Assembly (NCBI GenBank): GCA_964450435.1
Contig: CAYVCX010000002.1
Location: 43,760 to 107,759, forward strand
From: an uncultured Anaerolineales bacterium
GTDB lineage: Bacteria; Chloroflexota; Anaerolineae; B4-G1
Reading direction: 5' to 3'
DNA: 64,000 bases
The position numbers were made by a program, and so were the translations under genes. The notes below the pieces were generated by a model. The model was not told the origin of the DNA. It saw only the letters and a list, made by a program, of their open reading frames with translations, and did no database searches. Positions 7,224 through 25,600 of this stretch are shown piece by piece. Numbering within the stretch: position 1 is the first letter of the stretch; the number at the start of each line of letters is the position of its first letter.

Positions 7224-7329
7224 GACGCGTGCCAGGCAAGGCCCGACGAGATTGGAGGGGCTTCTCGTCCCATCCACCCGGTTGATGCGGATGGGAAGGG
7301 CAGCAACGAGACCGGGCTGTGGAGGTTCT

Positions 7330-7734
7330 ATGAGAGCCGAGCTATCGGCAGAGAGAATACGTGGGCGTTTCGTGCAGCTGGTTGAGGAGATCAGCGGTCA
7401 GGATCTCCTGGCCTGCAACCAGTGCGGCAAGTGCAGCGCTGGATGCCCCATTGTAGGCACGATGGACATCCTGCCCAGCCAGGCCATCCGAATGGCGCAG
7501 TTGGGTATGGAGGACGTGCTGGAGACGACCACCATATGGATCTGCGCTTCCTGCCTGACGTGTGTCGCGCGCTGTCCCAAGGGGGTCGATCTGCCCCGAC
7601 TGATGGAGGCCCTGCGCCAGACTGCATTGCGCAAAGGGGTCGCGAAGTTGGATCTAAACGCTCTCCCTCAGGAGCTGTTGCGCGAGCTGCCTCAGCTGGC
7701 GATCATCGGGGGATGCAGGAAGTACATAAAGTAA
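7330..7734 (+). CDS. hdrC: Heterodisulfide reductase subunit C-like (2x[4Fe-4S] ferredoxin)
   Basis: Two CxxCxxCxxxCP motifs (CNQCGKCSAGCP and CASCLTCVARCP). A GGAGG RBS precedes the ATG at 7330. It is followed by hdrB. Confidence 0.75.
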   Translation: MRAELSAERIRGRFVQLVEEISGQDLLACNQCGKCSAGCPIVGTMDILPSQAIRMAQLGMEDVLETTTIWICASCLTCVARCPKGVDLPRLMEALRQTALRKGVAKLDLNALPQELLRELPQLAIIGGCRKYIK

Positions 7735-7795
7735 ACCTGTGTGTCTGGTGGTCAATCGGTAAACATATGTGGCCGCAAAATCTTGGAGCTAGTTA

Positions 7796-8662: not shown

Positions 8663-8719
8663 AGGGGGCCGGTAGAAGCGGGTGAGTTGGTGCGGTTGGC
8701 GGGTTCAGGGAGGAAGAAA

Positions 8720-9292
8720 ATGTCCGATGTTTGGAAGCGGTTGGAGAACTACCGAAAATTGAAGGTGTTGCCCTCTGGTGAGAGGCTCCTGTTGCGTCCC
8801 TTGACGAAGCAGGATAAGCAGGACCTCGTGGCCCTCTTTGGTCGCGCCGCCGAGCAAGACCTGCAGTACTTCCGGAGCGATGCCGGTGATCCGGAGGTGG
8901 TGAAGAGTTGGGTGGACAAACTGGATCTGCAGCGCGTCTTTCCTCTGGTGGCTGTCGTGGACGACACGATAGTGGGGGAGGCGATGCTGCACTTCGGGGA
9001 GCACTTCCATCGTCACCTGGCCTGGGTGCGCATCTTCCTGGACCGGGACTACCGGCGACAGGGTATCGGCACGCTCATGCTGCGCTGCTTGATCGAGGTC
9101 GCGCGCCGGGTCGGGCTGCAGCAGTTGTACGCCGAGGTTGTGCTGACCCAGCCCCAGGTGATCAAGGCCTTCGAGAACCTCGGTTTCCGCCACGAGGTGA
9201 CGTTGGAGGACTACTTCATCACCGATAGCGGGGAGACCCTCGACATGGCTATTCTGGTGTACTGGCTCGTCGACAGCTCCGGGGTGTTCTGA
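8720..9292 (+). CDS. GNAT family N-acetyltransferase
   Basis: Acetyl-CoA binding motif (RRQGIGTLML) within a GNAT fold of about 190 aa. A GGGAGGAAG RBS precedes the ATG at 8720. Confidence 0.7.
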   Translation: MSDVWKRLENYRKLKVLPSGERLLLRPLTKQDKQDLVALFGRAAEQDLQYFRSDAGDPEVVKSWVDKLDLQRVFPLVAVVDDTIVGEAMLHFGEHFHRHLAWVRIFLDRDYRRQGIGTLMLRCLIEVARRVGLQQLYAEVVLTQPQVIKAFENLGFRHEVTLEDYFITDSGETLDMAILVYWLVDSSGVF

Positions 9293-9518: not shown

Positions 9519-10154
9519 ATGGCACTTGGCACTGGGCTCGGGACTCCGAGTCAGGCGCTGACGGTAATAACCGGACTCGCCTTCAGCGACCTTGTGAAGC
9601 AGCAGAGCGGCGAGAATCTCCACGCCTGTTACTACTGCCAGAAGTGTACTGCGGGCTGTCCAACAGCCTTCACGATGGACTACAAGCCCGCCCAACTCCT
9701 GCGCTTGATCCAGTTGGGGCAGAAGGACAGGGTCTTGGGGAGCCGGGCCATCTGGATGTGCATCGGGTGTGAGGCCTGCGGCACCCGCTGTCCCAACGAC
9801 ATACGCCTGGCACCGGTGATGGACGTGCTCCGCCATATGGCGCTCGATGAGGGATACAAGCCCGACACCGCTGTCTACTCCCTCCACCGGGCGTTCCTCG
9901 AAAGCATCCGCAGGTGGGGGCGCATGCACGAGGTCACCATGCTGGCCGAGTTCAAGACCCGCTGCCTCCTGTCCGAGTATTCCGTCTTCTTCGAGGGCCT
10001 GCTGGGGGATATGAAAATGGGCGGTGAGTTGATGTTGAAGGGGAAGCTTTCGTTTCTTCCGGACCGCATCAAGCGCATGGAGGAGATCAAGGCCCTGTAT
10101 GAGGAGGCCACCGATGCGTCGTCCCGTGAGGGTGAGTCGGAGGTGGGCGAGTGA
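9519..10154 (+). CDS. hdrC: Heterodisulfide reductase subunit C
   Basis: Motifs CYYCQKCTAGCP and CIGCEACGTRCP. A GGAGG RBS is present. It overlaps the following hdrB start by 4 nt. Confidence 0.8.
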   Translation: MALGTGLGTPSQALTVITGLAFSDLVKQQSGENLHACYYCQKCTAGCPTAFTMDYKPAQLLRLIQLGQKDRVLGSRAIWMCIGCEACGTRCPNDIRLAPVMDVLRHMALDEGYKPDTAVYSLHRAFLESIRRWGRMHEVTMLAEFKTRCLLSEYSVFFEGLLGDMKMGGELMLKGKLSFLPDRIKRMEEIKALYEEATDASSREGESEVGE

Positions 10155-10999
10155 GATACACGTACTATCCCGGGTGCACGGCTGAGACCACGGCTGTCGA
10201 GTTCGGCCTGTCCACCGAGGCGGTCTGTGAGGCTCTGGGCATGGAGTTGATCGAGATCGATGACTGGAACTGCTGCGGCGCCTCGTCGGCGCACAGCCTG
10301 GACCACGAGCTTGGTCTGTCCCTGCCCGGCCGTAATGTGGCCCTGGCTCAGAAGGCCGGGCTGGACATAGTGATTCCGTGCCCCGCCTGCTACCAGCACT
10401 GCCGCGACGCCGACATCAAGATGCGTGAGGACGAGGCCTGGCGCGCGAAGATGGAGAGGATCCTGGGGTTCCAATACGAGGGCGACGCGCTCCCGCGTCA
10501 CCTGCTGGAGGTCCTCAGCCGAGATTTCGACCGGGAGACCCTCAAAGAGAAAGTCAGCAGGCCCTTGAAAGGTCTCAAGGTAGCTTCCTACTACGGCTGC
10601 GTCCTGGTCCGCCCGCCGGAGCTAACCGGCTGGGACGATCCGGAGCATCCCACGACGATGGACCACCTGATGGCCGCTATCGGAGCCGAGATCGTCGACT
10701 GGTCCTACAAAGTAGATTGCTGCGGTGCGAGCATGACCCTCGCGCGCGGCGACATAGTCGTCGAGCTGTCCACCAAGGTCGTCGAAGGGGCCGTCGAAGC
10801 GGGCGCGGACTGTATTGTCTCCGCTTGCGGAATGTGCGAGATCAACCTTGATACGCGGCAGGCTGGCGAGAAGAAGATGCCTATTTTCTACTTCACCGAA
10901 CTGATGGGCCTCGCACTAGGGCTGCCCGGGATCGACAAGTGGTTGGGCAGACATAGCGTGGATCCCCGACCACTGCTTCGAGAACGAGGGCTTCTTTAG
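10151..10999 (+). CDS. hdrB: Heterodisulfide reductase subunit B
   Basis: N-terminal YYPGC and two CCG domains. It is translationally coupled to hdrC. Confidence 0.8.
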   Translation: MRYTYYPGCTAETTAVEFGLSTEAVCEALGMELIEIDDWNCCGASSAHSLDHELGLSLPGRNVALAQKAGLDIVIPCPACYQHCRDADIKMREDEAWRAKMERILGFQYEGDALPRHLLEVLSRDFDRETLKEKVSRPLKGLKVASYYGCVLVRPPELTGWDDPEHPTTMDHLMAAIGAEIVDWSYKVDCCGASMTLARGDIVVELSTKVVEGAVEAGADCIVSACGMCEINLDTRQAGEKKMPIFYFTELMGLALGLPGIDKWLGRHSVDPRPLLRERGLL

Positions 11000-11023: not shown

Positions 11024-14000
11024 ATGAGCGACAACAACGGATCTCTCAGGACTGAAGCAAAGTCTGCCGGAAGCGACGCCGTCCTGGTTGTCGGTGCCGG
11101 CATTGGTGGTATGCAGTCAGCCTTGCTTCTCGCTGAAACCGGACACCAGGTCTACCTGCTGGATAGCTCTCCCGGCATCGGGGGCTCGATGCATCTGCTG
11201 GACCGCACGTTCCCCACCGATTCGTGCGGCATTTGCCTGATGCTGCCGGGACGGGCGGCGTATTGCCCCACCATCGAGTGTGATCTTCACGCAAACATCC
11301 AGATTCTTGCTTATGCCGAGGTAGAAGATGTGGCGGGCGAGGCCGGGAGTTTCACGGTCACGGTGCGCCGCAAACCGCGCTACGTGGACGTTGAGCTGTG
11401 TAACAACTGTGGTCTCTGTGCTGAGGTCTGTCCCGCGGACCTTCCCCACCAGTACGAAGGAACTGTGGCACCGCAGAAGGCGATCTACCAGCCGCCCATC
11501 CGCGCCATTCCGTCCACCTACGTCATCGACATGGATTACTGCACCCGCTGCGGCGAGTGCGTCGCGGTGTGCCCCATTGAGGCTGTCGACCTGGAGATGG
11601 CCGAGACCCAGGAGCAGATCCAGGTGGCGGCCGTGGTGATGAGCCCGGGCTACGAGCCCTTCGACGCGGGCGTCAAGGGGGAGTACGGTTTCGGGCACTA
11701 CGACAATGTTCTATCGAGCATCCAATTTGAGCGCATGATCAGCATCTCTGGCTCCACCGGGGCGGATATCGTGCGGCCATCCGATGGTGAGTCGCCGCAG
11801 CGGGTCGCTTTCATCCAGTGCGTCGGGTCCCGGGATTCCTCTATTGATCGCGGCTACTGTTCCTCAGTCTGCTGCATGTACACCGCCAAGCAGGTGCAGG
11901 TCGCCAAGAGGCTCGATCCCGACCTCGATGTGACGGTCTTCTTCATGGACATCCGTGCCCACGGCAAGGACTTCGACGAGTATTTTGATCAGGTGGAGGC
12001 GATGCCGGGCGTGAACTATCGCCGTGCGATGGTCTCCTCGGTCCACGAATACAAGCAGACGGGCGACCTGCAGCTCAACTTCGTCGGAGAGGACGGGACG
12101 GTCCGTGAGGAGGATTTCGACATGGTAGTGCTCTCGGTGGGCTTCGAGCCTCCCCAGGGCTTCCGGGATCTGGGCCAGGCCTTGAACGTCGATTTGAACC
12201 GCCACGGCTTTGGCCAGTCGGACACGTTCCATCCCGGTGAAAGCTCGCAGCCGGGCATCTTCGTCAGTGGCGCTTTCCGGGAGCCCAAGGACATCCCGGA
12301 GACCGTCGTCGAGGCCTCGGCCGTCGCAGCCAGCGCTGCTCGCCTCCTGGAGCAGGTCCGGGTTCCCTCTGGCGTGCCGGCGAAACCTGTGCCCAGCGTT
12401 GACACTCAGCCCGAGGAGCGGGACGTCAGCCGCGAATGGCCCCGCGTGGGCGTCTTCCTGTGCGACTGCCGGGGAGAGGTTGGCTCGGTGGTCGACCTGC
12501 AGGATGTCTCCGAGTACGCGGGGGGCCTCCAGGACGTGGCCCTGGTACAGGCCATGGATAATGCCTGCCTGTTGAGCGGCCGCGAGCAGATTCTCCAGGC
12601 GATCGAGGAGGCCGAGCTCAATCGTGTGGTGATCGCGGGTTGCCCTGCCCGGGAGTATCAATCGGTCTTCGAGGATCTGATGCGTGGTGCGGGTCTGAAT
12701 CCTGCCTTGATGGAGCGAGTCAATCTCCGCGGCGAGATAGCCTGGGTTCATCAGGGGAATGGGACGCACGCTACTGCCAAGGCCAAAGAGCTGGTCCACA
12801 TGGCCGTCGCCGGCGTCCGGATGGACCAGCCGATCTACTTCGAAGATCAGGAACTCTCGCAGCGAGCCTTGGTAGTCGGCGGGGGGCTGGCCGGAATGAC
12901 GGCTGCCCGTAGCTTGGCGCAGATGGGCCACGAGGTGGACCTGGTGGAGGCCTCAAGTGAGCTCGGCGGACAACTGAACGAGCTGCGCTATCTGCCCACC
13001 GGGGAGGATCCTGTGGCATTCACCACCTCGCTCATCGAGGCGGTGGAGAGCGCCAGCCAAATTCACATCTACCGCGACGCTCAGATCGACGGGGTCTCCG
13101 GCTGCGTCGGGCAGTATCAGACGAACCTGGCCCTGGCCGATGGAGACCGCGAGACGCTGCGCCACGGCGTGCTCATCGTGGCCACCGGCGGGCAAGAGGT
13201 TGTTCCGACCGAGTATTTGTACGGAGAGAGCCCCCAGGTGGTCACCCAGCGAGAGCTCGAGAAGCTGCTGGAGGCAGATGGGGATGTACCCTCCGATGTG
13301 GTGATGATTCAGTGTGTCGGCTCGCGAGAGCCTGAACGTCCCTACTGCAGCCGCATCTGTTGCACCAAAGCCGTCTCCAATGCGCTCCGCATCAAGGAGC
13401 GCAATCCGGATGCGCGGGTGTTCGTGCTCTACCGGGAGATGCGTACCTACGGTTTCCGCGAGGACTACTACCGGGAGGCGCGCGAGAAGGGCGTGATCTT
13501 CCTCCGCTATGAGCTGCCCGACAAACCCCGGGTCGCGGCGGGTGACGGGCAGTTGAGCGTCCGGCTTCGGGAGCCGGTCACCGGCGAACAGGTGGACCTG
13601 CAAGCCGACATGCTTGTGTTGAGCACGGGGATCGATCCCCATGACGTGGGCGACCTTGCTCGCATGCTCGATGTGTCGCTGGACAAGAACGGGTTCTTCC
13701 AGGAGGAATACCCCAAGATGCGGCCCCTCGATTTCACGAAGCGGGGTATCTTTATGTGCGGACTGGCGCACTCGCCGCGATTCCTGGACGAGACCATCGT
13801 GCAAGCGCAGGGCGCGGCCATGCGTGCCGCTGCGTTGCTCCAACAGCAGACGTTGCAGGCCCCGGTGCCTCCGGTCCTGGTGAATGAGCGCCTGTGCACC
13901 GCATGCGGCCAATGTGTCGAGATCTGTCCCTACGGGGCCCGCGTGCTCGAGGCCGGGGCCCATACGGCCGAGGTGATCGAGGTGCTGTGTCAGGGTTGCG

Positions 14001-14092
14001 GTGCCTGTGTTGTTGCCTGCCCGAACAAGGCCACGCGGCGGCAGGGCGCCGAGATTTCCAGCGTGTATCGCATGCTGGAGTCAGTCGCATAG
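11024..14092 (+). CDS. hdrA: Tandem HdrA-like flavoprotein (1022 aa). N-terminal half is an FAD domain with the Cys-rich motif; C-terminal half has an N-terminal Cys-rich Fe-S domain, an FAD-like domain with a degenerate motif, and a C-terminal 2x[4Fe-4S]
   Basis: GxGxxG motifs at residues about 23 and about 616. Motif DRTFPTDSCGICLMLP in the first half versus LNELRYLPTGED in the second. Motif VFLCDCRGEVG marks the N-terminal Fe-S domain, and ferredoxin motifs lie at the C-terminus. Confidence 0.8.
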   Translation: MSDNNGSLRTEAKSAGSDAVLVVGAGIGGMQSALLLAETGHQVYLLDSSPGIGGSMHLLDRTFPTDSCGICLMLPGRAAYCPTIECDLHANIQILAYAEVEDVAGEAGSFTVTVRRKPRYVDVELCNNCGLCAEVCPADLPHQYEGTVAPQKAIYQPPIRAIPSTYVIDMDYCTRCGECVAVCPIEAVDLEMAETQEQIQVAAVVMSPGYEPFDAGVKGEYGFGHYDNVLSSIQFERMISISGSTGADIVRPSDGESPQRVAFIQCVGSRDSSIDRGYCSSVCCMYTAKQVQVAKRLDPDLDVTVFFMDIRAHGKDFDEYFDQVEAMPGVNYRRAMVSSVHEYKQTGDLQLNFVGEDGTVREEDFDMVVLSVGFEPPQGFRDLGQALNVDLNRHGFGQSDTFHPGESSQPGIFVSGAFREPKDIPETVVEASAVAASAARLLEQVRVPSGVPAKPVPSVDTQPEERDVSREWPRVGVFLCDCRGEVGSVVDLQDVSEYAGGLQDVALVQAMDNACLLSGREQILQAIEEAELNRVVIAGCPAREYQSVFEDLMRGAGLNPALMERVNLRGEIAWVHQGNGTHATAKAKELVHMAVAGVRMDQPIYFEDQELSQRALVVGGGLAGMTAARSLAQMGHEVDLVEASSELGGQLNELRYLPTGEDPVAFTTSLIEAVESASQIHIYRDAQIDGVSGCVGQYQTNLALADGDRETLRHGVLIVATGGQEVVPTEYLYGESPQVVTQRELEKLLEADGDVPSDVVMIQCVGSREPERPYCSRICCTKAVSNALRIKERNPDARVFVLYREMRTYGFREDYYREAREKGVIFLRYELPDKPRVAAGDGQLSVRLREPVTGEQVDLQADMLVLSTGIDPHDVGDLARMLDVSLDKNGFFQEEYPKMRPLDFTKRGIFMCGLAHSPRFLDETIVQAQGAAMRAAALLQQQTLQAPVPPVLVNERLCTACGQCVEICPYGARVLEAGAHTAEVIEVLCQGCGACVVACPNKATRRQGAEISSVYRMLESVA

Positions 14093-14139: not shown

Positions 14140-15465
14140 GTGGGCAAAGGTGAACCAGGGGCGGTGGTGATTGGTGCTGGCATTGCTGGCATCCAGGCTG
14201 CGCTCGACATCGCGGATGCGGGCTTTCACGTGTATCTCGTGGAGCGCGAACCATCTGTCGGCGGGCGCATGGCTCAGCTAGACAAGACGTTTCCGACCCT
14301 GGACTGCTCTTCGTGCATCCTGACGCCCAAGATGGTCGACGTGGGCCAGCATCCCAACATCGAGCTGATGACCTATTCGGAGGTGGCGTCGGTCGAGAAG
14401 GATGATGGGGTCTTCCACGTGCGAGTGCGCAAGAAGCCCCGGTACGTGGACGTCGATCTGTGCCGTGGGTGTGGTGACTGCGCTGAAGCCTGTCGTCTCA
14501 AAGGGCGCGTTTCGAGCAACTTCGATGCGGGTATCGCCAACAGGTCGGCTATTTACGTACCTTTCCCTCAAGCAGTCCCGCTGAAGTACACCATCGACCC
14601 GGAGGCGTGCCTCTATCTGACCCGCGGGGTCTGTGGACGTACGTTCAAGTGCAAGGACGCCTGTCCAGCCGAGGCCATCGATTTCGAGCAGGAAGAGGAG
14701 TTCGTGGACGTCGATGTGAGGACCATCGTTGTGGCCACGGGGTTCGATATCATCGAGCCGGAGACCAAGCCGGAATACGCCTACGGTGTCTATCCCCAGG
14801 TGATGACGGGCATCGAGTTTGAGCGGCTTTCTGATGCCTCGGGGCCCACAAGAGGACAGATTCTGATCGATGGAAAGAAGCCGAAAGATGTCGTGTTCAT
14901 CAAGTGCGTCGGCTCCCGAGACCCGCATACGGGAGTCCCCTACTGCTCTCGAGTCTGCTGTATGTATACGGCGAAACACGCTCATCTGGTGCGAGAAAAG
15001 GTGCCCGAAGCGAACATCACCGTCTTCTATATGGACGTGCGCGCTTTCGGTAAGGGATACGAGGAGTTCTACGATCGTGTGAAGCACGAACGAGTCAACT
15101 ACCGGCGCGGAGAACCCTCCGAGGTCTATCGACGCGGCGACAAGCTGGTTGTGCTGGCCGAGGATACCAGTCTGGGAGAGGTCGTTGAGGTCGAGGCCGA
15201 TCTGGTGGTCCTGGCAACGGCCATTGTGCCACGAACGGACATACAGGATGTCGCCGAGGTGTTGGGCTTGGAGCGGTCTGCGGATGGGTTCTTCCAGGAG
15301 TCGGACACGAAGCTGCGTCCGGTCGACACGAATGTGGAGAACGTCTTTGTGGCCGGCTGTTGCCAGAGCCCCAAGGATATCCCGGATACAGTCGCACAGG
15401 CGAAAGCCGCGGCTTCTTGCGCGTTGAGGGTGTTGGTCCGAGCCAGGGAAGCCGTGCCCGCTTAG
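14140..15465 (+). CDS. hdrA: HdrA-like FAD protein, short form (N-half type, 441 aa) with intact DKTFPTLDCSSCIL motif
   Basis: The GAGIAGIQAA FAD fold, the FPTLDCSSCIL motif and an internal ferredoxin motif are all present. Confidence 0.8.
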   Translation: MGKGEPGAVVIGAGIAGIQAALDIADAGFHVYLVEREPSVGGRMAQLDKTFPTLDCSSCILTPKMVDVGQHPNIELMTYSEVASVEKDDGVFHVRVRKKPRYVDVDLCRGCGDCAEACRLKGRVSSNFDAGIANRSAIYVPFPQAVPLKYTIDPEACLYLTRGVCGRTFKCKDACPAEAIDFEQEEEFVDVDVRTIVVATGFDIIEPETKPEYAYGVYPQVMTGIEFERLSDASGPTRGQILIDGKKPKDVVFIKCVGSRDPHTGVPYCSRVCCMYTAKHAHLVREKVPEANITVFYMDVRAFGKGYEEFYDRVKHERVNYRRGEPSEVYRRGDKLVVLAEDTSLGEVVEVEADLVVLATAIVPRTDIQDVAEVLGLERSADGFFQESDTKLRPVDTNVENVFVAGCCQSPKDIPDTVAQAKAAASCALRVLVRAREAVPA

Positions 15466-15598
15466 CCCTCCAACCGCGCTTGTCATTCTAGGGAGTGTGG
15501 CAGGTGCAGCGGGGTGACGGCGAAGAATCTCCCTGATGTTGGATTGACTTTTCCAGCGATGCGGGGCTGTGAGCGGTAGGGTGGTAGAGGAGAACGAG

Positions 15599-16774
15599 AT
15601 GGCATTGAAGACAGCAAGCATGGCCGAGAAGTTGGAGCTCTTCGGCTGCATTCAGTGTGGGAAGTGCACGGGCGGATGTCCCGTGGCGCGTAAGACGACG
15701 CTCAACATTCGTACGTTGATCTACCACATGCTGGTTGACCCGGATATGGATGTGGATGCCCATCAGGAGTTGTGGGATTGCACCTCGTGCTTTACCTGCG
15801 TCGAGCGCTGTCCCAAGGACGTGGAGCCAGCCGAGTTGATCATCTCCTTGCGCGGCGAGCTGGTGGAGAGCGGCCGCGTCCCCGAGACCGTCGGTACTGC
15901 GCTGATGGGCATCTTCCGGCAGGGCAATCCGAGCGGTATGGCCCGCCAGGATCGTGAGTTGTGGGCAGAAGGCGTCGAGGACAGCCTGCAGCGGGCCAAG
16001 CAGGCGGTGCAGGAGGGGTGCGACCTGCTCTATTTCGTGGGCTGTATTCCTTCCTACGACCAGCGGATACACCCTGTCGCTCGCGCGCTCTTGAAGATCT
16101 TTGAGAGCGCGGGGCTGACCGTGGGCACCCTGGGCACACAGGAATCGTGCTGCGGGAATGAGGTCCGGCGGATGGGCGAGGTGGGGCTGTTTGAGATGCT
16201 CGCCGAGGAGAACGGTGAGCTTCTCCGCAGTGTCGGGGCCCGGCGGATAGTCACCACCTCACCTCACTGCTTTAACACCTTCGTGAATGAGTACGGTCTC
16301 GATGAGATGGAGGTGCTGCATTACACGCAGCTTCTGGCGAACCTCATCGAGAACGGCGAAGTGGCCTTCCCGGGGAGCCTGGCCGCAGAGGACGGCAGCG
16401 AGAAGGTGGTAACCTATCACGACCCCTGCTTCCTGGGCAAGCAGAATCATATCTATGACGAACCCCGCGCGATCCTGGATGCCATTCCTGGCGTCAAGCT
16501 GGTGGAGATGGACCGCAGTCGCGAGCGTAGCCTCTGCTGCGAGGGCGGCGGCGGACGCATGTGGGTCGAGGGGACGAATCTGGAGGAGCGGCTCGCCTTT
16601 CAGCGCGTTCAGGAAGCGGCGGAGACGGGGGCGGAGGTCCTGGCTGTGGCCTGCCCGTTCTGTCTGCTGACCCTCGAGGACGCGGTGAAGGTGGAAGGCC
16701 TGGACGAGCAGTTGCGGGTGATGGACATCATGGAGCTGGTCGAGCTGGCCTCAGAGGAGACGGACGAGGAGTGA
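15599..16774 (+). CDS. hdrD: HdrD-like fused HdrC-HdrB Fe-S oxidoreductase (GlcF/LutA family)
   Basis: N-terminal 2x[4Fe-4S] (CIQCGKCTGGCP, CTSCFTCVERCP) followed by two CCG domains. A GAGGAG RBS precedes the ATG at 15599. Confidence 0.75.
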   Translation: MALKTASMAEKLELFGCIQCGKCTGGCPVARKTTLNIRTLIYHMLVDPDMDVDAHQELWDCTSCFTCVERCPKDVEPAELIISLRGELVESGRVPETVGTALMGIFRQGNPSGMARQDRELWAEGVEDSLQRAKQAVQEGCDLLYFVGCIPSYDQRIHPVARALLKIFESAGLTVGTLGTQESCCGNEVRRMGEVGLFEMLAEENGELLRSVGARRIVTTSPHCFNTFVNEYGLDEMEVLHYTQLLANLIENGEVAFPGSLAAEDGSEKVVTYHDPCFLGKQNHIYDEPRAILDAIPGVKLVEMDRSRERSLCCEGGGGRMWVEGTNLEERLAFQRVQEAAETGAEVLAVACPFCLLTLEDAVKVEGLDEQLRVMDIMELVELASEETDEE

Positions 16775-16847
16775 GCGGCGAGGCGCCCGGGCGACTACCC
16801 GCCCAGGGGCCCGCGCGCTCGTGCTCCTGGCTTGAGTGGGTGACATT

Positions 16848-18602
16848 ATGAAACAAGAACCCCGTATCGGTGTGTACGTTTGCCATTGCGGCGTGAACAT
16901 CGCTTCCGTGGTTGACGTGGAGGCGGTGGCCGAGGCTGCGGCCGACCTGCCGGGTGTGGTGGTCGCCAGGCACTACACCTATATGTGCTCTGACCCGGGG
17001 CAGGCGCTGATCAAGGAGGATATTCGTGAACGTGGACTGAACCGGGTTGTTGTGGCGTCCTGTTCGCCCCGCATGCACGAGCCCACTTTCCGGGCGGCCG
17101 CTCAGCAGGAAGGGGTGAATCCGTACCAGGTGGACATGGCCAACATCCGCGAGCAGTGCTCGTGGGTCCATAAGGACCACGAGAAGGCCACACAGAAAGC
17201 CATCTCGCTCGTGGCTTCGTCAGTGGCCAGAGCAGCCTGCCTCGAGTCTCTCGAGGAGCGTGAGGTCGACGTTACGCCCGGCGCGGTTGTCATCGGTGGC
17301 GGAATCGCGGGTATGACCGCTGCCCTTGACATTGCCGACACCGGCTTGCCCGCCTACCTGATAGAGAAGGAGGATCACCTCGGCGGGCGCGTCTCGGCGC
17401 TCAACCGCACGTTTCCAACCTTGGAATCGGTGTCGGATTTGCTGGAGCCCTTCGTTGCGCGGGTTCACCAGCATCCGAATATCACTGTCTTTCTTCGTTC
17501 CCGTGTGTCCAACGTTGACGGGTACGTGGGCAATTTCCACGTGGAGATCTCCCGGGATGAGCGAGCCGGGGCCGAGGCGAGGGACGGTGAAGCTGCGGAG
17601 CACGCGTCCCTCCGCTCCGAGGTGAAAGCCGGCTCGATCATCGTGGCCACAGGGTATGACGTCTTCAACCCGGACCGGACTCCTGAGCTCGGCTACAGCG
17701 ACTACCCCAATGTGATTACCTCCCTGGAGATGGAGGAGCGTCTGCTGGAGGGCGATCTGACGGTGGACGGGCGCACTCCGGAACGCGTGGCATTCATCCA
17801 GTGTGTGGGATCGCGGGACAAACAGCTGGGCAATCCGCACTGTTCGCGGGTCTGCTGCATGTACACTGCCAAGCAGTCCCGCCTGGTGCGCGAGATGGTT
17901 CCCGAGGCGGAGGTGACCGTCTTCTACATCGACGTGCGAACCTTTGGCAAGGGAGCAGAGGAGTTCTACGACGAGGCCCGTAACAAAGGGGTCCGCTACC
18001 GCCGGGGGAACGTCTCGGAGATCTATCGGCGCAGGCGGAGCGAGGGTGGCGATCGCGTCGTCTTGATAGCGGAGGACACATTGCTCGGCCAGCCCATTGA
18101 GTTTGAGGCGGATCTCGTGGTCCTTGCCGTCGGCATGGAGCCCCGAGATAGTGCCGGCACGGTCTCGCAACTCCTGAAACTGCCGCGCTCCTCCGACGGG
18201 TTCTTCCTGGAGGCCCACCCCAAGTTGAGGCCTGTGGATACGGCGATGGCGGGTGTCTTCCTCGCTGGCTGTTGCCAGGGCCCCAAAGACATTCCCGACA
18301 CCGTTGCCCAGGCCAAGGCGGCGGCCTCCTCGGCGCTGATACCCTTGATTCGCGGGTCCGTGCCCGTTGAATCGGCAACGGCCGTGGTGAGCGAGGAGCT
18401 TTGTGCCGGGTGTGGCATGTGCGCCGATGTCTGTCCCTATGATGCGCCGGCCCTGGACACGCTGTGGGGCGTCTCGCGCATCAACCCCGTCCTCTGTGAG
18501 GGCTGCGGGGCGTGTGCCGTTACCTGCCCCTCCAGGGCCATTCGACTCCAGCACTTCACTGTCGAGCAGGTGCTGGCGCAGGTGGACGCCCTGGTCGGGT
18601 AG
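16848..18602 (+). CDS. hdrA: HdrA (classical domain order: N-terminal Cys-rich domain, FAD domain, C-terminal ferredoxins), but with a degenerate FAD-site Cys motif
   Basis: N-terminus IGVYVCHCGVNIASV is typical of HdrA. The expected DKTFPTxDCxxCIL is replaced by NRTFPTLESVSDLLEP, which has no cysteines. Confidence 0.8.
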   Translation: MKQEPRIGVYVCHCGVNIASVVDVEAVAEAAADLPGVVVARHYTYMCSDPGQALIKEDIRERGLNRVVVASCSPRMHEPTFRAAAQQEGVNPYQVDMANIREQCSWVHKDHEKATQKAISLVASSVARAACLESLEEREVDVTPGAVVIGGGIAGMTAALDIADTGLPAYLIEKEDHLGGRVSALNRTFPTLESVSDLLEPFVARVHQHPNITVFLRSRVSNVDGYVGNFHVEISRDERAGAEARDGEAAEHASLRSEVKAGSIIVATGYDVFNPDRTPELGYSDYPNVITSLEMEERLLEGDLTVDGRTPERVAFIQCVGSRDKQLGNPHCSRVCCMYTAKQSRLVREMVPEAEVTVFYIDVRTFGKGAEEFYDEARNKGVRYRRGNVSEIYRRRRSEGGDRVVLIAEDTLLGQPIEFEADLVVLAVGMEPRDSAGTVSQLLKLPRSSDGFFLEAHPKLRPVDTAMAGVFLAGCCQGPKDIPDTVAQAKAAASSALIPLIRGSVPVESATAVVSEELCAGCGMCADVCPYDAPALDTLWGVSRINPVLCEGCGACAVTCPSRAIRLQHFTVEQVLAQVDALVG

Positions 18603-18659: not shown

Positions 18660-19088
18660 ATGAGTGAGGAGCAGTTCGAGCCCAAGATAGTAGGTTTCCT
18701 CTGCAACTGGTGCACGTACACCGGTGCTGATCTGGCTGGAACGTCGCGGATCCAGTATCCGCCCAACGTGCGGATCATCCGCCTGATGTGCTCCGGGTCG
18801 GTGGACCCTACCTACGTGCTCAAGCCGCTGCTTGATGGCGCCGACGGTGTCCTGGTCGGTGGCTGTCATCCCGGCGACTGTCACTACCAGTCGGGGAATT
18901 ATAAAGCCCGTCGCCGCATCATAGCCCTGAAAGAGATCCTGAAGAACGCTGGCCTGGATGAGGAGCGCGTGTGGTTGCGCTGGATCTCCGCGTCGGAAGG
19001 ACAGCGATTTGCGGACACCGTCACGGAGATGACCGAATTCCTCCGCGAGAAAGGGCCGAACCCGATGCGCAGGGAATGGGCTGTCTAG
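18660..19088 (+). CDS. mvhD: MvhD (methyl-viologen-reducing hydrogenase delta subunit family; 2Fe-2S electron-transfer protein for HdrA)
   Basis: Motifs FLCNWCTYTGADLAG, CSG and GGCHPGDCHY. A GAGGAGAG RBS is present. Confidence 0.85.
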   Translation: MSEEQFEPKIVGFLCNWCTYTGADLAGTSRIQYPPNVRIIRLMCSGSVDPTYVLKPLLDGADGVLVGGCHPGDCHYQSGNYKARRRIIALKEILKNAGLDEERVWLRWISASEGQRFADTVTEMTEFLREKGPNPMRREWAV

Positions 19089-19134: not shown

Positions 19135-20247
19135 ATGCGAACTTTGATTCCGGTTGAGAATGGGGATACGCTCGTGGCGGTGCAGAGCTTTCTTAAGCAG
19201 CTTCTGGAAGCTGACGTGGTGGACGCCCTCCTCGTGCCTATGCAGACCCCCAGCGGTGCTGTCACGCCTGCTCTGGTGTCGGATCCCGAGCTGTTGGACG
19301 CAGCCAATCCACTTGCCCCGGTGATGGGGCTCAATGCGGCCCCTCTGGCTGGTCGAGTCTCCGTCCGCGAGCCTCGGGAGCGTGTGGGGGTGGTGTTGCG
19401 CTCGTGCGAGCTGCGCGCGTTAACCGAGCTGGTCAAGCTGCAGCAGGCCAGCCTGGATGATCTGATCACCATCGGCGTGGATTGTCTGGGCACCTATGAC
19501 GTAAGCGTGTACACTGAAATGCGGAACGATGGCGGCGTCGATATGGGGGCCTACCTGGCGACGGCTCGAAGCGGTGATCTGGCCGCTCAAGACGGAGTTG
19601 CGTTTCGTGATGGGTGTGAGATGTGCGAGAAACCCCACGCTGCAGCCGCCGACATCATAGTGGAGCTGTTCGGCGCCGATGCGAGCACCGCCGTCCCTGT
19701 CTCGTTGCCCGATGAGATGGCCGAGACACTGGGATTGAGCCCTGGGGAGGGCGTGGAGCAGCGCCAGCAGGTGATCGAGAAGGTCGTCGCAGCACGCACC
19801 GAGGTCCGCGATCAGCGCTTTGCCGAGATTCGTGAGCGGCTTGAAGAGGAGGGCGTGGAAGGGGTCTTCGCCTCCTGCGTCCGCTGTCACAACTGCATGA
19901 CCGTCTGCCCCATCTGCTACTGCAAGACCTGTCTGTTCAGAAGCCAGGTCTTCGACCACGAGCCGATGCAGTACGCGAACTGGGCCAGGCGCAAGGGAGC
20001 CTATCGTCTGCCCGCTGACACAATGCTCTTCCACCTGACCCGCCTGAACCATATGGTGCTCTCCTGCATTGGGTGTGGCATGTGCACCAGCGACTGTCCC
20101 GCCGAACTGCCCGTCGGTGCCGTCTTTCGGGCCATTGGGCAGGCGACCCAGGAGGTCTTTGACTACGAGCCCGGTCGCGACGTCGAGGAGCCGCTGCCGC
20201 TGATCACCTTCAAGGAGGAAGAGTGGATGGATGTTGGAGAGGAGTAG
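19135..20247 (+). CDS. FrhB/FdhB-family protein (F420-hydrogenase/dehydrogenase beta-like flavo-iron-sulfur protein)
   Basis: Motif LRSCELRAL resembles the FrhB core, and there are two 4Fe-4S motifs (CVRCHNCMTVCP, CIGCGMCTSDCP). The family assignment is by eye only. Confidence 0.45.
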   Translation: MRTLIPVENGDTLVAVQSFLKQLLEADVVDALLVPMQTPSGAVTPALVSDPELLDAANPLAPVMGLNAAPLAGRVSVREPRERVGVVLRSCELRALTELVKLQQASLDDLITIGVDCLGTYDVSVYTEMRNDGGVDMGAYLATARSGDLAAQDGVAFRDGCEMCEKPHAAAADIIVELFGADASTAVPVSLPDEMAETLGLSPGEGVEQRQQVIEKVVAARTEVRDQRFAEIRERLEEEGVEGVFASCVRCHNCMTVCPICYCKTCLFRSQVFDHEPMQYANWARRKGAYRLPADTMLFHLTRLNHMVLSCIGCGMCTSDCPAELPVGAVFRAIGQATQEVFDYEPGRDVEEPLPLITFKEEEWMDVGEE

Positions 20248-20252
20248 AGACC

Positions 20253-20951
20253 ATGGAAGAGAAGCAAGAAAGCCTGATCCCTGTTTACATCATAGGCAAG
20301 CGCTACATGGTGCCGCCGACGCTGACCATCATGAAAGCTATGGAGTACGCGGGCTACCAGCTCATTCGCGGTGTGGGCTGTCGCGGCGGGTTCTGCGGGG
20401 CCTGTGGGACCACTTATCGCATCAAGGGCGACCCCAAGCTCTACTTCGATCTCGCCTGCCAGACGGTGGTGCAGCCGGACATGTACCTGGCCCAGATACC
20501 ATTTTTCCCTGCGCAGCGAGCGACCTACGACCTCACTCAGATGGAGGCCACGCCTGCTACCCTGTTCTCTACCTACCCGGAGCTGCTCCGCTGCCTCGGG
20601 TGCGGCGCTTGCACCAAAGCCTGCCCTCAAGATCTCGACGTGAGGGCCTACATGGCAACGGGCATGAAGGGTGATATCGCCGAGATGGCCGATCTATCCT
20701 TCGACTGCATCATGTGCGGCCTCTGCGCGGCGCGCTGTCCTGCCGAGGAGGCTCAGTACAATATTGCCATCCTGGCGCGACGGCTCTACGGTCGGTATCT
20801 GGCGCCGCGGTCGCAGCACCTGGAGGAGCGCCTCGAGGAGATCGAGGCGGGCGCGTTCGACGCGAAACTGGAGGAGCTGAAGGAGCTCAACCGTGATGGG
20901 CTCGTAGAGCGATACGAGGCCCGCGATATCGAGCCAGAGGAACGCGAGTAG
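20253..20951 (+). CDS. SdhB/FrdB-like iron-sulfur subunit (2Fe-2S plus 4Fe-4S plus a third cluster)
   Basis: Motifs CRGGFCGACG (2Fe-2S), CLGCGACTKACP and CIMCGLCAARCP. The ATG at 20253 is taken as the start; the listed ORF at 20223 overlaps the upstream gene. Confidence 0.6.
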   Translation: MEEKQESLIPVYIIGKRYMVPPTLTIMKAMEYAGYQLIRGVGCRGGFCGACGTTYRIKGDPKLYFDLACQTVVQPDMYLAQIPFFPAQRATYDLTQMEATPATLFSTYPELLRCLGCGACTKACPQDLDVRAYMATGMKGDIAEMADLSFDCIMCGLCAARCPAEEAQYNIAILARRLYGRYLAPRSQHLEERLEEIEAGAFDAKLEELKELNRDGLVERYEARDIEPEERE

Positions 20952-20968: not shown

Positions 20969-22576
20969 ATGAACGGCTATCCTGCCGAGATGCAGGAATC
21001 GATCAGACAGGTCGAGGCGACCCGTATGCGCCGCATCGACGAGACGCATCCCCGGATGTCCATCGAGGAGCGCGAGCGTGTGCTAGATCAGTTTCATCCC
21101 GATTACATCGAGGAGAGAATGCGCTCTGTACGCGTCGGCGTCAGCAAAGGCCAGCGTATGCCCCTCGAGTTGGCCAACGTAGTTGAGGGACGCCCGCACG
21201 TCAGTCCCGATTTCGACCTCAGCGAGCCCGTGGCCGAGACCGACGTGCTCGTCATCGGCGGCGGCGGCGCGGGTGCATCGGCCGCACTCCTCGCTCAGGA
21301 GGACGGTGCCCGAGTGATCGTGGTGACCAAGCTCCGCTTCGGCGACGCCAACACCATGATGGCCCAGGGCGGCATCCAGGCTGCCGATCGTCCCAACGAC
21401 AGCCCCGCCATTCACTACCTGGACGTCATCGGCGGCGGTCACTTCACCAACGACCCCGATCTGGTAGAGGCCCTGGTGATGGACGGTCCGGTGGTCATTG
21501 ACTGGCTCGAGCGTCTGGGAGTGATGTTCGACAAAGAGCCGGACGGGACGATGGTGGAGCGCCACGGCGGTGGAACCAGCCGTATGCGCATGCACTCCGC
21601 CCGCGACTACTCTGGTGCCGAGATCATGCGCACCCTGCGGGATGAGGTGCGTAACCGCGAGGACGATATCCGAGTGATTGAGTTCGCCCCCGCCGTGGAG
21701 CTGGTGCTTGACGATAATGGGTGTGTCGCCGGTGCCATCATGATGAACCTGGAGACGAAGGCCTATTCCTACATTAAAGCCAAAGCAGTCGTCGTGGCCG
21801 CCGGCGGGGGAGGACGGCTCCATTACCAGGGCTTCCCTACCACCAACCACTACGGCGCGACGGCGGATGGCGTGGTGATGGCCTACCGCGCCGGCGTCTC
21901 ACTTGGATACTTGGAGTCTATGCAGTATCATCCCACTGGGGCGGCTTTCCCGGAGCAGATTGTGGGTCAGTTGGTGACGGAGAAGGTCCGCGGGCTGGGT
22001 GCCCAGCCTGTCAACAAGCACGGTGAGCAGTTTGTCTTCCCCCTTGAGCCGCGCGATGTGGAGGCGGCCGCCTTCATCCGCGAGTGTCGGGAGCGCGGCA
22101 ACGGGCTCGTCACGCCCACAGGACAGCCCGGCGTCTGGCTTGACTCACCCATGATTGAGATCATCCATGGGCCTGGCACGATTCGCGAGAACTTGCCGGC
22201 GATGGTGCGTCAGTTCAAACGCTTCGACATAGATATGACCAAGGAGCCGATGCTCGTCTATCCGACACTCCATTACCAGAACGGCGGTGTGCGCCTGGAG
22301 CCTGATGGATCGACCGCGGTCCCGGGCCTGTTCATCGCCGGCGAGGTGAGCGGCGGGGTGCACGGTCATAACCGGCTGATGGGCAACTCGCTCTTGGAGG
22401 TCAGCGTCTACGGGCGGCGCGCCGGCTGGTCGGCCGCGGACTATGCCCGCGACGCCGTAGTGGGGCAGGCCAATCTGGCCCACGTGAAGACCTGGAATCA
22501 GGAGCTGGAAGAGACCGGTGTGGACACGGGCGTCATCTCGCCCATTCTCCTGCCGGATTACACGCGGCGGACGTAG
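20969..22576 (+). CDS. Succinate dehydrogenase / fumarate reductase flavoprotein-like FAD oxidoreductase
   Basis: FAD fold DVLVIGGGGAGASAA, an HPTG motif, and the 535 aa length. An AGGAGGA RBS is present. Confidence 0.7.
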   Translation: MNGYPAEMQESIRQVEATRMRRIDETHPRMSIEERERVLDQFHPDYIEERMRSVRVGVSKGQRMPLELANVVEGRPHVSPDFDLSEPVAETDVLVIGGGGAGASAALLAQEDGARVIVVTKLRFGDANTMMAQGGIQAADRPNDSPAIHYLDVIGGGHFTNDPDLVEALVMDGPVVIDWLERLGVMFDKEPDGTMVERHGGGTSRMRMHSARDYSGAEIMRTLRDEVRNREDDIRVIEFAPAVELVLDDNGCVAGAIMMNLETKAYSYIKAKAVVVAAGGGGRLHYQGFPTTNHYGATADGVVMAYRAGVSLGYLESMQYHPTGAAFPEQIVGQLVTEKVRGLGAQPVNKHGEQFVFPLEPRDVEAAAFIRECRERGNGLVTPTGQPGVWLDSPMIEIIHGPGTIRENLPAMVRQFKRFDIDMTKEPMLVYPTLHYQNGGVRLEPDGSTAVPGLFIAGEVSGGVHGHNRLMGNSLLEVSVYGRRAGWSAADYARDAVVGQANLAHVKTWNQELEETGVDTGVISPILLPDYTRRT

Positions 22577-22654
22577 CTGGGCAGGGGAGCAGTGGATCAC
22601 CGACTGGATGCGCGAACGGACAATGAACAGACATATCAGGAAACGAGAGGGAAA

Positions 22655-25600
22655 ATGCCTTTGAAGACGGAACATGGAACTGCTGGGGCGGTACTGGTAG
22701 TGGGCGGCGGCGTTGGGGGCATGCGGGCGGCAATTGATGCAGCCGAGGCCGGGCTGAAGGTCTATCTCCTGGAGAGGCTGCCGTGGATAGGAGGCCGCGT
22801 GGCACAGCTGGGCTATATGTTCCCCACCCACGACTGTGTGCTTTGCCGGGGGACTGCTGACCACGGCTATGGCTGCACAAAGCCAACTATCTCACCGGCC
22901 CTCCTCGATTTCAACCTGCATCCCAACATCGAAATATTGAACAACTCGGACCTGATCAGCGTCGGCGGTCGAGCGGGTGACTTCACCGTGACCGTGCGCC
23001 GTCGCCCTACGTACGTGGACGCCGATCATTGCATCAACTGCGGGATATGCAGTGCCGTGTGCCCGGTTAGCCTTCCCAGCCCTTTTGAAGAAGCACTGAA
23101 GCCCCGCAAGGCGATCTACAAGATGGCCCCGCGGGCGGTGCCCAACACCTATATTGTGGACAAAGTTCCGCGTTGCGAGACCTGTCGCCGCTGCGAGGCC
23201 GTGTGCCCGACTGAGGCGGTCCATCTCGATGAGAGGGAATTCGAGCAAGAACTGGATGTCGGGGCCATTATCCTGTCGGTGGGGTTCTCATTGCCCGACC
23301 CCGGGGAGTACGAGGAGCTGGGCCATGGCCGCTATCCCAACGTCATCCACTCGATGGAGTACGAACGGCTGGCCAGCCGTTCTGGCCCCACGGAGGGGGT
23401 GGTTATGCGCCCGTCCGACGGGGCAGAGCCCGATCGCATCGCCTGGCTGCAGTGCATTGGGTCCCGCGATCAGAAATATCCCTTTTGCTCCTCAATCTGC
23501 TGCATGTACGCTACCAAGGAGGCAATGGTAGCGAAAGAGCGGATCGACGATGTTCGGTGCCAGATCTTTATGATGGATGAGCGCGCCTTCAACAAGGAGT
23601 TCAACGCCTACTATGAACAGGCGCGTGAGGAGTATCAGATAGAGTACACCCGCTGCCGCATCTCCGAGGTCAAGGAGGATCCGGACACCCACGACTTGAT
23701 CCTCCGCTACCCCGACGACGAAGGGCGTATGCATGAGGAGCAATTCGACATGGTGGTTCTCTCCGTCGGCGCGCACCCGCCGAACGGGTCGAAGGACCTG
23801 GCCAACGTGCTGCAAATTGAATTGAACCCCTACGGCTTCTGTGAGACGGACAAGTTCGCGCCGTTGGAGACCAGCCGGCCGGGCATCTACGTTTGCGGGG
23901 CCTTTGCCTCCCCGAAGGAGATCGCCGAGACGATCCTGGATGCTGCTGGAGCGGTAGGGGATGTCACTCGTCTGATGCGAGAGCAGGTTGGCCGACTGCC
24001 TGCCAGCCGTGAGTTTCCATTCCTCTGGAGGCCGGACAGACTGCCCGCCGAGCGGGACGTGAGCGGCGAAGAGCCCCGCGTGGGCGTCTTCCTCTGCCGC
24101 TGCACGCCCACGCTCGACGGTGTGGTGGACGTGGACGAGGTGGCTGGCTTCGCTGAGGCGATGCCGAACGTGGTTCACGTCCGACCGGTGGAGTACGGCT
24201 GCTTCGAGCCAGGCCTGGACGCCATCCGATCTGATATCAAGGAGCACGGGCTGAATCGCGTGATCGTCGCAGCTTGCAGCCATCGCACTCACGAGCCACT
24301 GTTCCAGCGTACGGTGCGGGAGGCAGGGCTGAATCCCTACCTCCTGGAGATGGTGAATGTGCGGGAGCACTGTGCCTGGGCCCATATCGATGATCCGCCC
24401 GGGGCCACTCGCAAGGCGAAGGAGCTGATGCGCATGGCGCTGGGTCGCGTCCTGGCGGCCGAGCCGGTCCACAAACTGGAGCTCAGGCCTGTGCCTCGGA
24501 CCTTGGTCATCGGCGGCGGGGTGGCGGGGATGACCGCTGCACTGAACGTCGCCGATGCCGGCTACGACGTGACGCTGGTGGAACGCGAATCGGAGTTGGG
24601 AGGGAATCTGCGCAACGTCTACTACGTGGCCGAGCCCGAGAATCCCCAGCGGCTGCTGCGTGATCTGATCAACCGCATCATCGGTCACGAGCGCATCGAT
24701 CTTCTGACCGAGACCGAGCTTGTGTCGCACAGGGGACGCGTCGGTGACTTCACATCTGTGCTTCGCAACCTGCGCGACGGGCGCATTGTGGAGACCGAAG
24801 TAACTCACGGTGCTACGATCGTCGCCACCGGAGGGCGCGAATGGCGGGGTGACGTCTACATGCTGGGACGTGATCCTCGAGTAGTCACCTCAGAGGACTT
24901 GGAGGATATCATCGCCCATCGCCCGGAGGAGATCACCGACCTGGAGCAGGTGGTCTTCATCCAGTGCGTGCGCCCACCCGGTGGAGTGGAGTACTGCAGT
25001 CGTATTTGCTGCACCAACACGATGAAGAATGCGAATCGCATCAAGATGCTCAATCCCAGCTGCCAGGTTGTTGTACTGTATCAGGACATCATCACCTACG
25101 GTTTCCGGGAGGCATTCTACACCGAGGCGCGCGAGCGCGGTGTCATCTTTATGCGATACGATGAGGAGCATCTCCCGGATCTACGCAAGGTGAACGGTGA
25201 TCTGGAACTCACGGCGTGGGACCCAACTCTGGATAGAGAGACAACTCTCAGGCCCGACATGCTGGCCTTGAGTATGGCGATCGAGCCTTCTCCCGGCACG
25301 GAGAAGTTGGCGCGGATACTGGGAGTGGATCTCTCCAGCGAGGGCTTCTTCATGGAGGCCCACCTGAAGATGAGGCCCATGGACTTCGCGTCGGAGGGCA
25401 TCTTCTTCTGCGGCATGGCGCATTACCCCAAGTTCATTGAGGACGCCATTGCCAACGCCCAGGCTGCCGCGGGACGGGCGCTTACCATCCTCTCGAAGGA
25501 TCGCCTCTATATCGGCGGCGTGATCGCCGAGGTGGATCAAGATAGTTGTGTGGGTTGCTTGACTTGCGTGCGGACCTGCCCCTTCGAGGTCCCGGAGATA

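Follow-up and report, generated by a model that had tools for sequence, protein, structure and literature searches.

Asymmetric HdrA units of an Anaerolineales Wood-Ljungdahl gene cluster consist of complementary halves that probably share one bifurcation circuit

HdrA carries out flavin-based electron bifurcation, a reaction at the heart of methanogenesis, acetogenesis, sulfate reduction and anaerobic aromatic degradation. We analysed the HdrA homologs encoded in a 64,000-nucleotide stretch of DNA from an uncultured Anaerolineales bacterium (GenBank assembly GCA_964450435.1, contig CAYVCX010000002.1, positions 43,760 to 107,759), hereafter referred to as the window. The window corresponds to a Wood-Ljungdahl gene cluster that encodes CdhD, RACo, CooC, AcsE, FolD and several MvhD proteins, as well as two hdrCB sets, two metVF sets and a 2-oxoacid:ferredoxin oxidoreductase. 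An hdrABC-mvhD-metVF arrangement with two metVF sets has been described earlier in marine Anaerolineae (PMC5736913). Five HdrA units of the window are asymmetric (Table 1). Two of them, S1/L1 and S2/L2, are split into a short (S) and a long (L) gene, and three, F1, F2 and F3, are fusions of an S half to an L half. A first-pass annotation made from the letters of the sequence had pointed out S1/L1, S2/L2 and F1 as asymmetric pseudo-dimers that may carry a single catalytic flavin per unit. The motifs, the coordinates and the ATGA overlap between S2 and L2 that it listed are all correct, and an HdrD-like gene is indeed the only one between S1 and L1; F2 and F3 had been overlooked.

Table 1. Coordinates of the HdrA units of the window and of genes associated with them (aa, amino acids; nt, nucleotides)
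Feature	Position	Strand	Remarks
First hdrC-hdrB set	7201-8662	+
GNAT acetyltransferase gene	8687-9292
Second hdrC-hdrB set	9519-10999	+
F1, S-to-L fusion	11024-14092	+	1022 aa; S half aa 1-469 with Cys68/Cys71; L half from aa 470
S1, short HdrA half	14140-15465	+	441 aa; DKTFPTLDCSSCIL at aa 48-61 (nt 14281-14322)
HdrD-like protein	15569-16774	+	Pfam Fer4_8 and two CCG domains; HdrC-like 2x[4Fe-4S]
L1, long HdrA half	16836-18602	+	588 aa; NRTFPTLESVSDLLEP at aa 190-205 (nt 17403-17450)
MvhD/FlpD [2Fe-2S] adaptor	18660-19088	+	Pfam FlpD, E = 7.7e-54
FrhB_FdhB_C-like iron-sulfur protein	19135-20247	+	370 aa; Pfam borderline, 23.8 bits against a 23.3 cutoff
Fer2/Fer4 protein, SdhB-like	20223-20951	+	242 aa; matches TfrB N-terminal part
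TfrA/SdhA-like flavoprotein	20969-22576	+	535 aa; Pfam; N-terminal extension of ~90 aa
F2, S-to-L fusion	22592-25801	+	1069 aa; S half HDCVLC; L half cysteine-free VAEPENPQR
MvhD gene after F2	25794-26252
F3, S-to-L fusion	26340-30845	+	1501 aa; NfnB/GltD-like FAD/NAD(P)H insertion
First metV-metF set	31848-33527
Second metV-metF set	35668-37184
S2, short HdrA half	45062-46405	+	447 aa; retains DKTFPTNDCSTCIL and inserted ferredoxin domain
L2, long HdrA half	46402-48168	+	588 aa; cysteine-free LHKLYPTQEDARKV; no inserted ferredoxin
MvhD gene with S2/L2	48175-48633	+	Pfam FlpD, E = 8.6e-53
HdrD-like gene with S2/L2	48642-49799	+	Fer4 and two CCG domains
Canonical full-length HdrA (contrast case)	51406-54015	+	fused to MvhD/FlpD domain and Cys-rich tail
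In-frame TGA of canonical HdrA	52018-52020		exactly at Cys197 position (DCSI-TGA-ILGP)

The ten halves of the five units and the canonical HdrA of the window were aligned to Methanothermococcus HdrA (5odc_A), of which residues 1-647 were rebuilt from HMMER alignments and served as the reference; positions such as E356 and K409 follow the HdrA numbering. S1 covers reference residues 146-567 (E = 1.7e-144). It comprises a TrxR-like flavin adenine dinucleotide (FAD) domain with Cys56 and Cys59, which correspond to Cys194 and Cys197, an inserted ferredoxin with two [4Fe-4S] clusters and the four-cysteine HA4 cluster, and has neither an N-terminal domain nor a C-terminal ferredoxin domain. L1 covers HdrA residues 10-246 and 324-652 (E = 1.5e-182). 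It has an N-terminal domain with equivalents of cysteines 11, 13, 46 and 71, a TrxR-like FAD domain, the HA4 cluster and a C-terminal ferredoxin with two [4Fe-4S] clusters; its TrxR-like domain has no Cys pair, with NRTFPTLESVSD at that place, and no inserted ferredoxin. The open reading frame of L1 starts with GTG, and an ATG at 16848 lies four codons inside it. Among NCBIfam models, HdrA2 (NF040770) gave the highest scores for the halves of the window, 535-824 bits, which is far short of its cutoff of 1100. A sequence search of solved chains returned none with the asymmetric architecture.

The division of modules seen in S1 and L1 holds for every unit. The N-terminal domain (Cys 11/13/46/71) and the eight-cysteine C-terminal ferredoxin domain are present in 5/5 L halves and 0/5 S halves, and the Cys194/Cys197 pair and the eight-cysteine inserted ferredoxin domain in 5/5 S halves and 0/5 L halves. 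Within the window, an N-terminal domain and a Cys pair are found together in one chain only in the separate gene for canonical HdrA. All ten halves have in common the GxGxxG motif, E173 (Asp in one half), G179/G180 and HA4 cysteines 386/399/403/404. E356 and K409 are likewise present in all ten, except that Ser replaces K409 in the L half of F1, which reads LNELRYLPTGED at aa 651-662. This strict two-state pattern means that the asymmetry is a complementary loss of whole modules and not the loss of an FAD site. The description of the units as asymmetric pseudo-dimers is thus borne out in all five, each of which shows an N-terminal domain and a Cys pair in complementary halves. The first-pass annotation was also right that the Cys motif is lost, but missed that the N-terminal, inserted-ferredoxin and C-terminal-ferredoxin domains are lost as well. 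In addition, a loop ...ASGPTGGKVIRLS... that follows E356 (5odc_A 357-372; ~17880-17900 in L1) is deleted in all L halves and kept in S halves.

The DKTFPTxDCxxC sequence had been taken for an FAD-site motif, a reading that published structures do not support: the Cys pair is located between the MvhD or shuttle cluster and the flavin and has been described as a cluster ligand or as a redox relay. In the crystal structure as summarised by Chadwick et al. (PMC9012536), Cys197 is a ligand of the N-domain cluster of the partner subunit. Papers of 2026 place the Cys/Sec pair between the flavin and the MvhD cluster or the shuttle [4Fe-4S] cluster, where it may serve as a redox relay (PMC13518236, PMC13580544, bioRxiv 10.64898/2026.04.10.717634).

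The L-clade alignment was scanned over one genome per species. More than 600 stretches matched, and the best 80 loci were analysed, with domains typed by hidden Markov models built from the window's own halves. These loci belong to Anaerolineae, Bathyarchaeia, Asgard archaea, many Desulfobacterota, ANME-2 (anaerobic methanotrophic archaea), Methanoperedens, Thermoplasmata, Planctomycetes, Acidobacteriota and others. They contained 120 L halves, of which 73 were fused behind an S-like half; none of these 73 fusions had the L-to-S order. For another 42 the S gene was immediately upstream, for one it was 423 nt upstream, and four were at contig ends. Thus, each L half whose locus includes the upstream region has an S half upstream, 115 of them fused or directly adjacent.

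In these 80 other genomes, the Cys pair was missing in 123 of 128 L-type halves. GxGxxG, E173 and GG180 were conserved in ~100% of the 128 L halves, and the FAD fingerprint was conserved to the same extent (~100%) in S halves. The HA4 cysteines were found in 123/124 L halves and are conserved in S halves. The FAD fingerprint of the halves that had been called degenerate is therefore conserved. E356 was present in 105/105 S halves compared to 99/124 L halves (80%), and K409 in 104/105 S halves compared to 109/124 L halves (88%). Judging from these counts, the constraint on the flavin site is stricter in S halves than in L halves.

When L1 was queried against 1.84 billion cluster representatives, 2343 matches with E <= 1e-30 were obtained. 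The best 150 of them, mostly S-to-L fusions of 950-1530 aa, were typed jointly with the proteins of the window, three L1 homologs and 5odc_A as the reference. The four features co-varied in this set, which resolved into 126 L-type, 84 S-type and 19 canonical units. The L1 family itself was sampled with 120 database homologs of 72-84% identity. No Cys at position 194 or 197 was present in any of the 120, and the FAD fingerprint, E356, K409 and the cysteines of HA4 and of the C-terminal ferredoxin were invariant. Two of the N-domain cysteines were found in 116/120, the remainder being alignment gaps in four shorter sequences. Such strict conservation rules out that these L halves are degenerate proteins or pseudogenes. 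Close homologs of L1 carry names of Anaerolineae or Chloroflexota metagenome-assembled genome (MAG) proteins; a look-up of the exact L1 sequence returned no record.

Stop codons in frame at position 197 were encountered in the surveyed loci. All of them (29/29) were TGA, preceded by DKTFPTN[DE]Cxx or a close variant, DKTYPTMDCSI, and they were found in S or canonical halves only. This restriction suggests that position 197 is functionally important in S and canonical halves and dispensable in L halves. Desulfobacterota-type loci have TGA at Cys197 in S halves, both separate and fused (loci L013, L018-L021, L024, L027, L029-L033, L035, L041, L043, L053, L055, L056, L062, L074, L075), and gene callers and stop-to-stop reading frame scans truncate these proteins. 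The apparent lack of the Cys pair in Desulfobacterota S halves was found to be an artefact, with the reading frames beginning straight past the TGA at 197, where selenocysteine is indicated.

In cryo-electron microscopy structures of canonical (HdrABC)2 complexes the chemistry occurs in trans, and an N/C-terminal arm of one HdrA serves the flavin, the Cys pair and the inserted ferredoxin of the other subunit (PMC12350162, PMC13580544, PMC13518236). Electrons reach the partner's FAD (FAD') from the arm, along an entry path on which the partner's Cys pair lies. The high-potential electron then passes from FAD' to HA4', the cluster of the TrxR domain, and on to HdrBC, and the low-potential electron passes to the shuttle cluster HA3 of the arm and from there to HA5'/HA6' in the inserted ferredoxin of the partner. 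The domain map of the window's halves can be laid over this published mechanism. The L half, with its HA3-bearing N-terminal domain, C-terminal ferredoxin and presumed MvhD docking site, would be the mobile arm, and the S half, with the Cys pair, FAD, HA4 and HA5/HA6, the catalytic core. The reciprocal circuit would be deleted on both sides, leaving an S·L unit with exactly one trans circuit: each unit would have its bifurcating flavin in S, a single MvhD and a single exit through HdrD or HdrBC. Each split pair of the window is accompanied by one MvhD and one HdrD.

L halves almost certainly bind FAD, since the whole FAD fingerprint and the adjacent four-cysteine cluster are retained. The L flavin, next to its own HA4-type cluster, would be served by no arm and would lack a low-potential exit. 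We consider it probable that S1 and L1, S2 and L2 and the two parts of each fusion are the unlike halves of one HdrA dimer with a single bifurcation circuit whose flavin resides in S. That the halves interact physically, which flavin bifurcates and what the substrates are we infer from the sequences and published structures. Natural asymmetric HdrA dimers, split or fused, reveal the parts of one minimal working circuit. In a split pair such as S1/L1 one flavin site could be mutated without touching the other, which is impossible in a homodimer.

Relatives of these units have been characterized. In a cryo-electron microscopy preprint on the Geobacter metallireducens BCRII complex, BamE is described as "a fused HdrA dimer" (bioRxiv 10.64898/2026.04.10.717634). 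According to the same work, the first TrxR domain of BamE contains the bifurcating FAD, Lys280 and Cys59-Cys62. The second contains a non-bifurcating FAD with Gln768 and its own [4Fe-4S] cluster alongside, to which a mainly structural role is ascribed. BamE has one shuttle cluster, one inserted and one C-terminal ferredoxin, and is accompanied by one HdrD-like BamD and one MvhD-like BamF (same preprint). The S1-HdrD-L1-MvhD set resembles a split counterpart of BamE-BamD-BamF, with the homology derived from the residue numbers of the BamE paper. It differs in that S1/L1 and S2/L2 are two genes each and that four of the five L halves of the window have Lys at K409 where BamE has Gln768. Beside the HdrA units of the window there are no genes for Bam partners.

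The HdrA proteins of Moorella thermoacetica and Sporomusa ovata, parts of MetFV-HdrABC-MvhD methylene-tetrahydrofolate reductases, are also S-to-L fusions. Rosenbaum et al. (2022, PMC9430772) described the HdrA of S. ovata and that of Moorella, the latter as an extra ferredoxin and a GltD-interrupted TrxR domain followed by an L-type part without inserted ferredoxin. Two FAD have been reported for the Moorella protein, one of them proposed to bifurcate. The L part, with an MvhD-like N-terminal domain, a TrxR domain and a C-terminal ferredoxin, is shared with the window, the GltD interruption of the N-terminal TrxR domain in Moorella is exactly that of F3, and the Wood-Ljungdahl/metVF context is the same. 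S1/L1, in contrast, is split, has no GltD insertion and lies beside TfrAB-like genes and not beside metVF. For tandem and fused HdrA of ANME archaea and Moorella, a heterodimer was proposed in which the two-fold symmetry is broken (Chadwick 2022, PMC9012536). In the tandem ANME pairs HdrA5/6 and HdrA12/13 and the fused HdrA3/4, N-terminal domain, C-terminal ferredoxin and Cys197 are distributed over the two partners in the same complementary way; these proteins have HdrD and MvhD neighbors, and include NfnB-type insertions. They are archaeal, and their fusions are described as L-to-S, whereas those of the window and the 73 surveyed ones are S-to-L. Canonical HdrA (MvhAGD-HdrABC, Fdh-Hdr, Elp-Hdr; 5ODC, 7BKB, 8RVU and other structures) has the TrxR-like FAD domain, HA4 and E356/K409 in common with the window's halves and is 52-54% identical to S1 and L1 over the common core. 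It differs in having four modules in one chain, a symmetric dimer and two circuits, whereas the halves of the window hold a part each.

The asymmetric dimer, presented as a structural variant in the first-pass annotation, is thus already in the literature (Chadwick 2022, Rosenbaum 2022 and the BamE preprint), and the idea of one bifurcating flavin has already been shown experimentally for a relative, BamE. The window is a good example of a known and widespread asymmetric HdrA, not of a new principle; it contributes examples and an evolutionary detail, the origin of S1/L1, which is the one modestly new point. As to the single catalytic flavin, one flavin per unit, that of the Cys pair-bearing short half, does appear to be wired to bifurcate, in agreement with BamE, the nearest precedent from experiment. 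As a statement about occupancy the claim does not hold: the L halves keep the FAD fingerprint, an outcome that the annotation itself had named as counting against it, and two FAD were reported for Moorella HdrA.

Literal occupancy by one FAD would make the L half a flavin-free scaffold. That L halves have lost the 357-372 loop along with the Cys pair and their inserted ferredoxin domain, and that the C-terminal GACQGPKDIP has diverged to GxAHxPKF in the L clade, would fit such a role, but the fingerprint and HA4 cysteines persist in essentially all L halves and are invariant in the L1 family, Moorella HdrA of the same architecture was reported with two FAD, and both TrxR domains of BamE bind FAD (bioRxiv 10.64898/2026.04.10.717634). 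A flavin-free L half is therefore very improbable. More weight attaches to the opposite view, though it too appears improbable, that both flavins are catalytically active and that the L flavin has a second redox job, e.g. switching between two-electron and one-electron transfer without bifurcation to supply its own HA4 and a second HdrBC or HdrD, or in a second bifurcation by an unknown route. E356 and K409 in four of the five L halves of the window, their invariance, with the HA4 cysteines, in the 120 L1 homologs, the presence of E and K in both TrxR domains of Moorella HdrA (Rosenbaum et al., PMC9430772) and the two hdrCB sets upstream of F1 all speak for it. Against it, L halves have neither the Cys pair nor HA5/HA6, and an arm that could serve an L flavin is missing from S halves; across genomes E356 and K409 are relaxed in L and strict in S; the second FAD of BamE is non-bifurcating and off the branch point (bioRxiv 10.64898/2026.04.10.717634); and there is a single HdrD per S/L pair.

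It could also be that S and L are not partners but neighboring paralogs in separate complexes, with S forming a homodimer like sHdrA and L a homodimer that acts as a non-bifurcating MvhD-linked reductase. S1 does match sHdrA (6TJR), a short homodimeric HdrA relative, and the hdrD gene does separate S1 from L1. We regard this as highly unlikely given the 73 natural S-to-L fusions, the S half found upstream of every L half that could be judged (the four contig-end cases could not) and the F2 unit, whose halves make up one protein in one genome and are encoded by two genes in another. Moreover, because the losses in S and L are exactly complementary, neither homodimer would own a full circuit. 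Several points nevertheless weigh against a single-circuit S·L dimer. The hdrD gene lies between S1 and L1, whose binding to each other we infer. L1 and most L halves retain E356 and K409, which the literature treats as flags of bifurcating flavins, and the invariance of both residues in the 120 L1 homologs, unlike Gln768 of BamE, means that the second flavin may be more than structural. S-type homodimers could in principle form, as for sHdrA, and fusions in ANME archaea are described as having the opposite order (Chadwick et al., PMC9012536). The E356/K409 criterion and the structural geometry were themselves taken from secondary text in later open papers.

Two other HdrA-containing systems were considered and rejected. 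The sHdrA of Hyphomicrobium denitrificans (6TJR), which we take to be a homodimer, is a 349-residue chain too short for an inserted ferredoxin; S1 retains this domain and always has an L partner. An sHdr-type system is ruled out, since S1 and S2 keep all eight inserted-ferredoxin cysteines and the match to 6TJR is partial. QmoA and QmoB are the two HdrA paralogs of the Qmo complex, which is associated with QmoC and AprAB. On gene context and family scores, a Qmo-type system was rejected as well, since neither Apr genes nor a membrane QmoC are present in the neighborhood; matches of QmoC to the HdrD-like proteins were weak (33-44 bits against a cutoff of 300).

The relationships of S1 and L1 set this pair apart. 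Over 314 common core columns S1 and L1 are 58% identical to each other and each is 52-54% identical to 5odc_A, but their identity to other S and L halves over the same columns is only 33-49%. In a neighbor-joining tree of 252 units S1 is nested among canonical HdrAs, and L1 and its homologs cluster with a small number of canonical-length proteins, apart from the main L clade. In 95/100 bootstraps a split was recovered that sets S1 and L1 apart from at least 95% of the L clade, which places both proteins, as far as the tree can tell, outside the widespread S and L clades. L1 has the canonical signatures CSRVCCMY and GCCQGPKDIP and neither YCSRICCT nor GxAHxPKF, which mark the L clade; S1 does not share the S clade's deletion of two residues. 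An exclusive sister relationship of S1 and L1 was supported at 85% in a 12-sequence tree, but in only 9/100 bootstraps of the 252-unit tree, and was not retained. From distance trees and signature motifs, S1/L1 looks like a separate, younger origin of the asymmetry. The flavin pocket of L1 looks "bifurcating-type", because E356, K409 and the FAD fingerprint are invariant in the 120 homologs. If L1 was derived independently, the loss of loop 357-372 in L1 and in the other L halves is convergent.

The genes around S1 and L1 were compared with those of related contigs. The HdrD-like gene keeps its place between S1 and L1 in contigs L001-L004, and its product is presumed to be the high-potential exit from the S1 flavin, the counterpart of BamD. 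An MvhD gene is found 3' of L1 in the related contigs too, sometimes past inserted unrelated genes; the MvhD is presumed to be the electron entry, docking on the L1 arm. The gene for the 370-aa iron-sulfur protein is always located 3' of this MvhD, with one gene inserted between them in L004. No match to this protein was obtained in an NCBIfam search; it is a possible electron-input subunit. All three genes from the 370-aa iron-sulfur protein to the 535-aa flavoprotein accompany the S1-HdrD-L1-MvhD unit in every related contig compared, and are candidate donor and acceptor modules.

The best NCBIfam match of the HdrD-like protein was TfrB (170 bits against a cutoff of 385) and that of the 535-aa flavoprotein TfrA (342 bits against 718). 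Within TfrB, the match of the HdrD-like protein lies in the C-terminal part and that of the 242-aa protein in the N-terminal part. Parts resembling a thiol:fumarate reductase thus look split around S1/L1; they are syntenic in four related contigs, and all are below NCBIfam cutoffs. These TfrAB-like companions hint at an uncharacterised acceptor for the S1/L1 unit. A tentative and, on sequence evidence, unlikely proposal is that S1-HdrD-L1-MvhD is both a younger re-invention, by duplication of a canonical HdrA and complementary loss apart from the ancient, widespread S/L clade, and an undescribed HdrA-dependent bifurcating reductase of Anaerolineae whose high-potential acceptor would be of the fumarate type or similar and which may have two working flavins.

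Upstream of F1 there are two consecutive hdrC-hdrB sets with a GNAT acetyltransferase gene between them. The equivalent of F2 in contig L004 (16119-17758) consists of two adjacent genes for proteins of 399 and 666 aa, which indicates that fusion and fission of S and L are evolutionarily labile. In F3, the insertion of ~470 aa interrupts the inserted ferredoxin domain of the S half and is similar to that of NfnB type in ANME-1 HdrA9-11. F3 is followed on its 3' side by two metV-metF sets, which are not identical. An Anaerolineae MAG has the whole order of genes from folD through the 1501-aa protein in common with the window.

The canonical HdrA gene of the window contains an in-frame TGA (Table 1), and 22 nt past this codon a hairpin with a GGUC/GUCG loop is predicted (fold z = -2.15). 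A search of Rfam with the region around the TGA gave no match. A related Anaerolineae contig (L005, 13379-13381) has the same TGA and an identical hairpin sequence, and the TGA of the window is likely a selenocysteine codon, judging from its sequence context.

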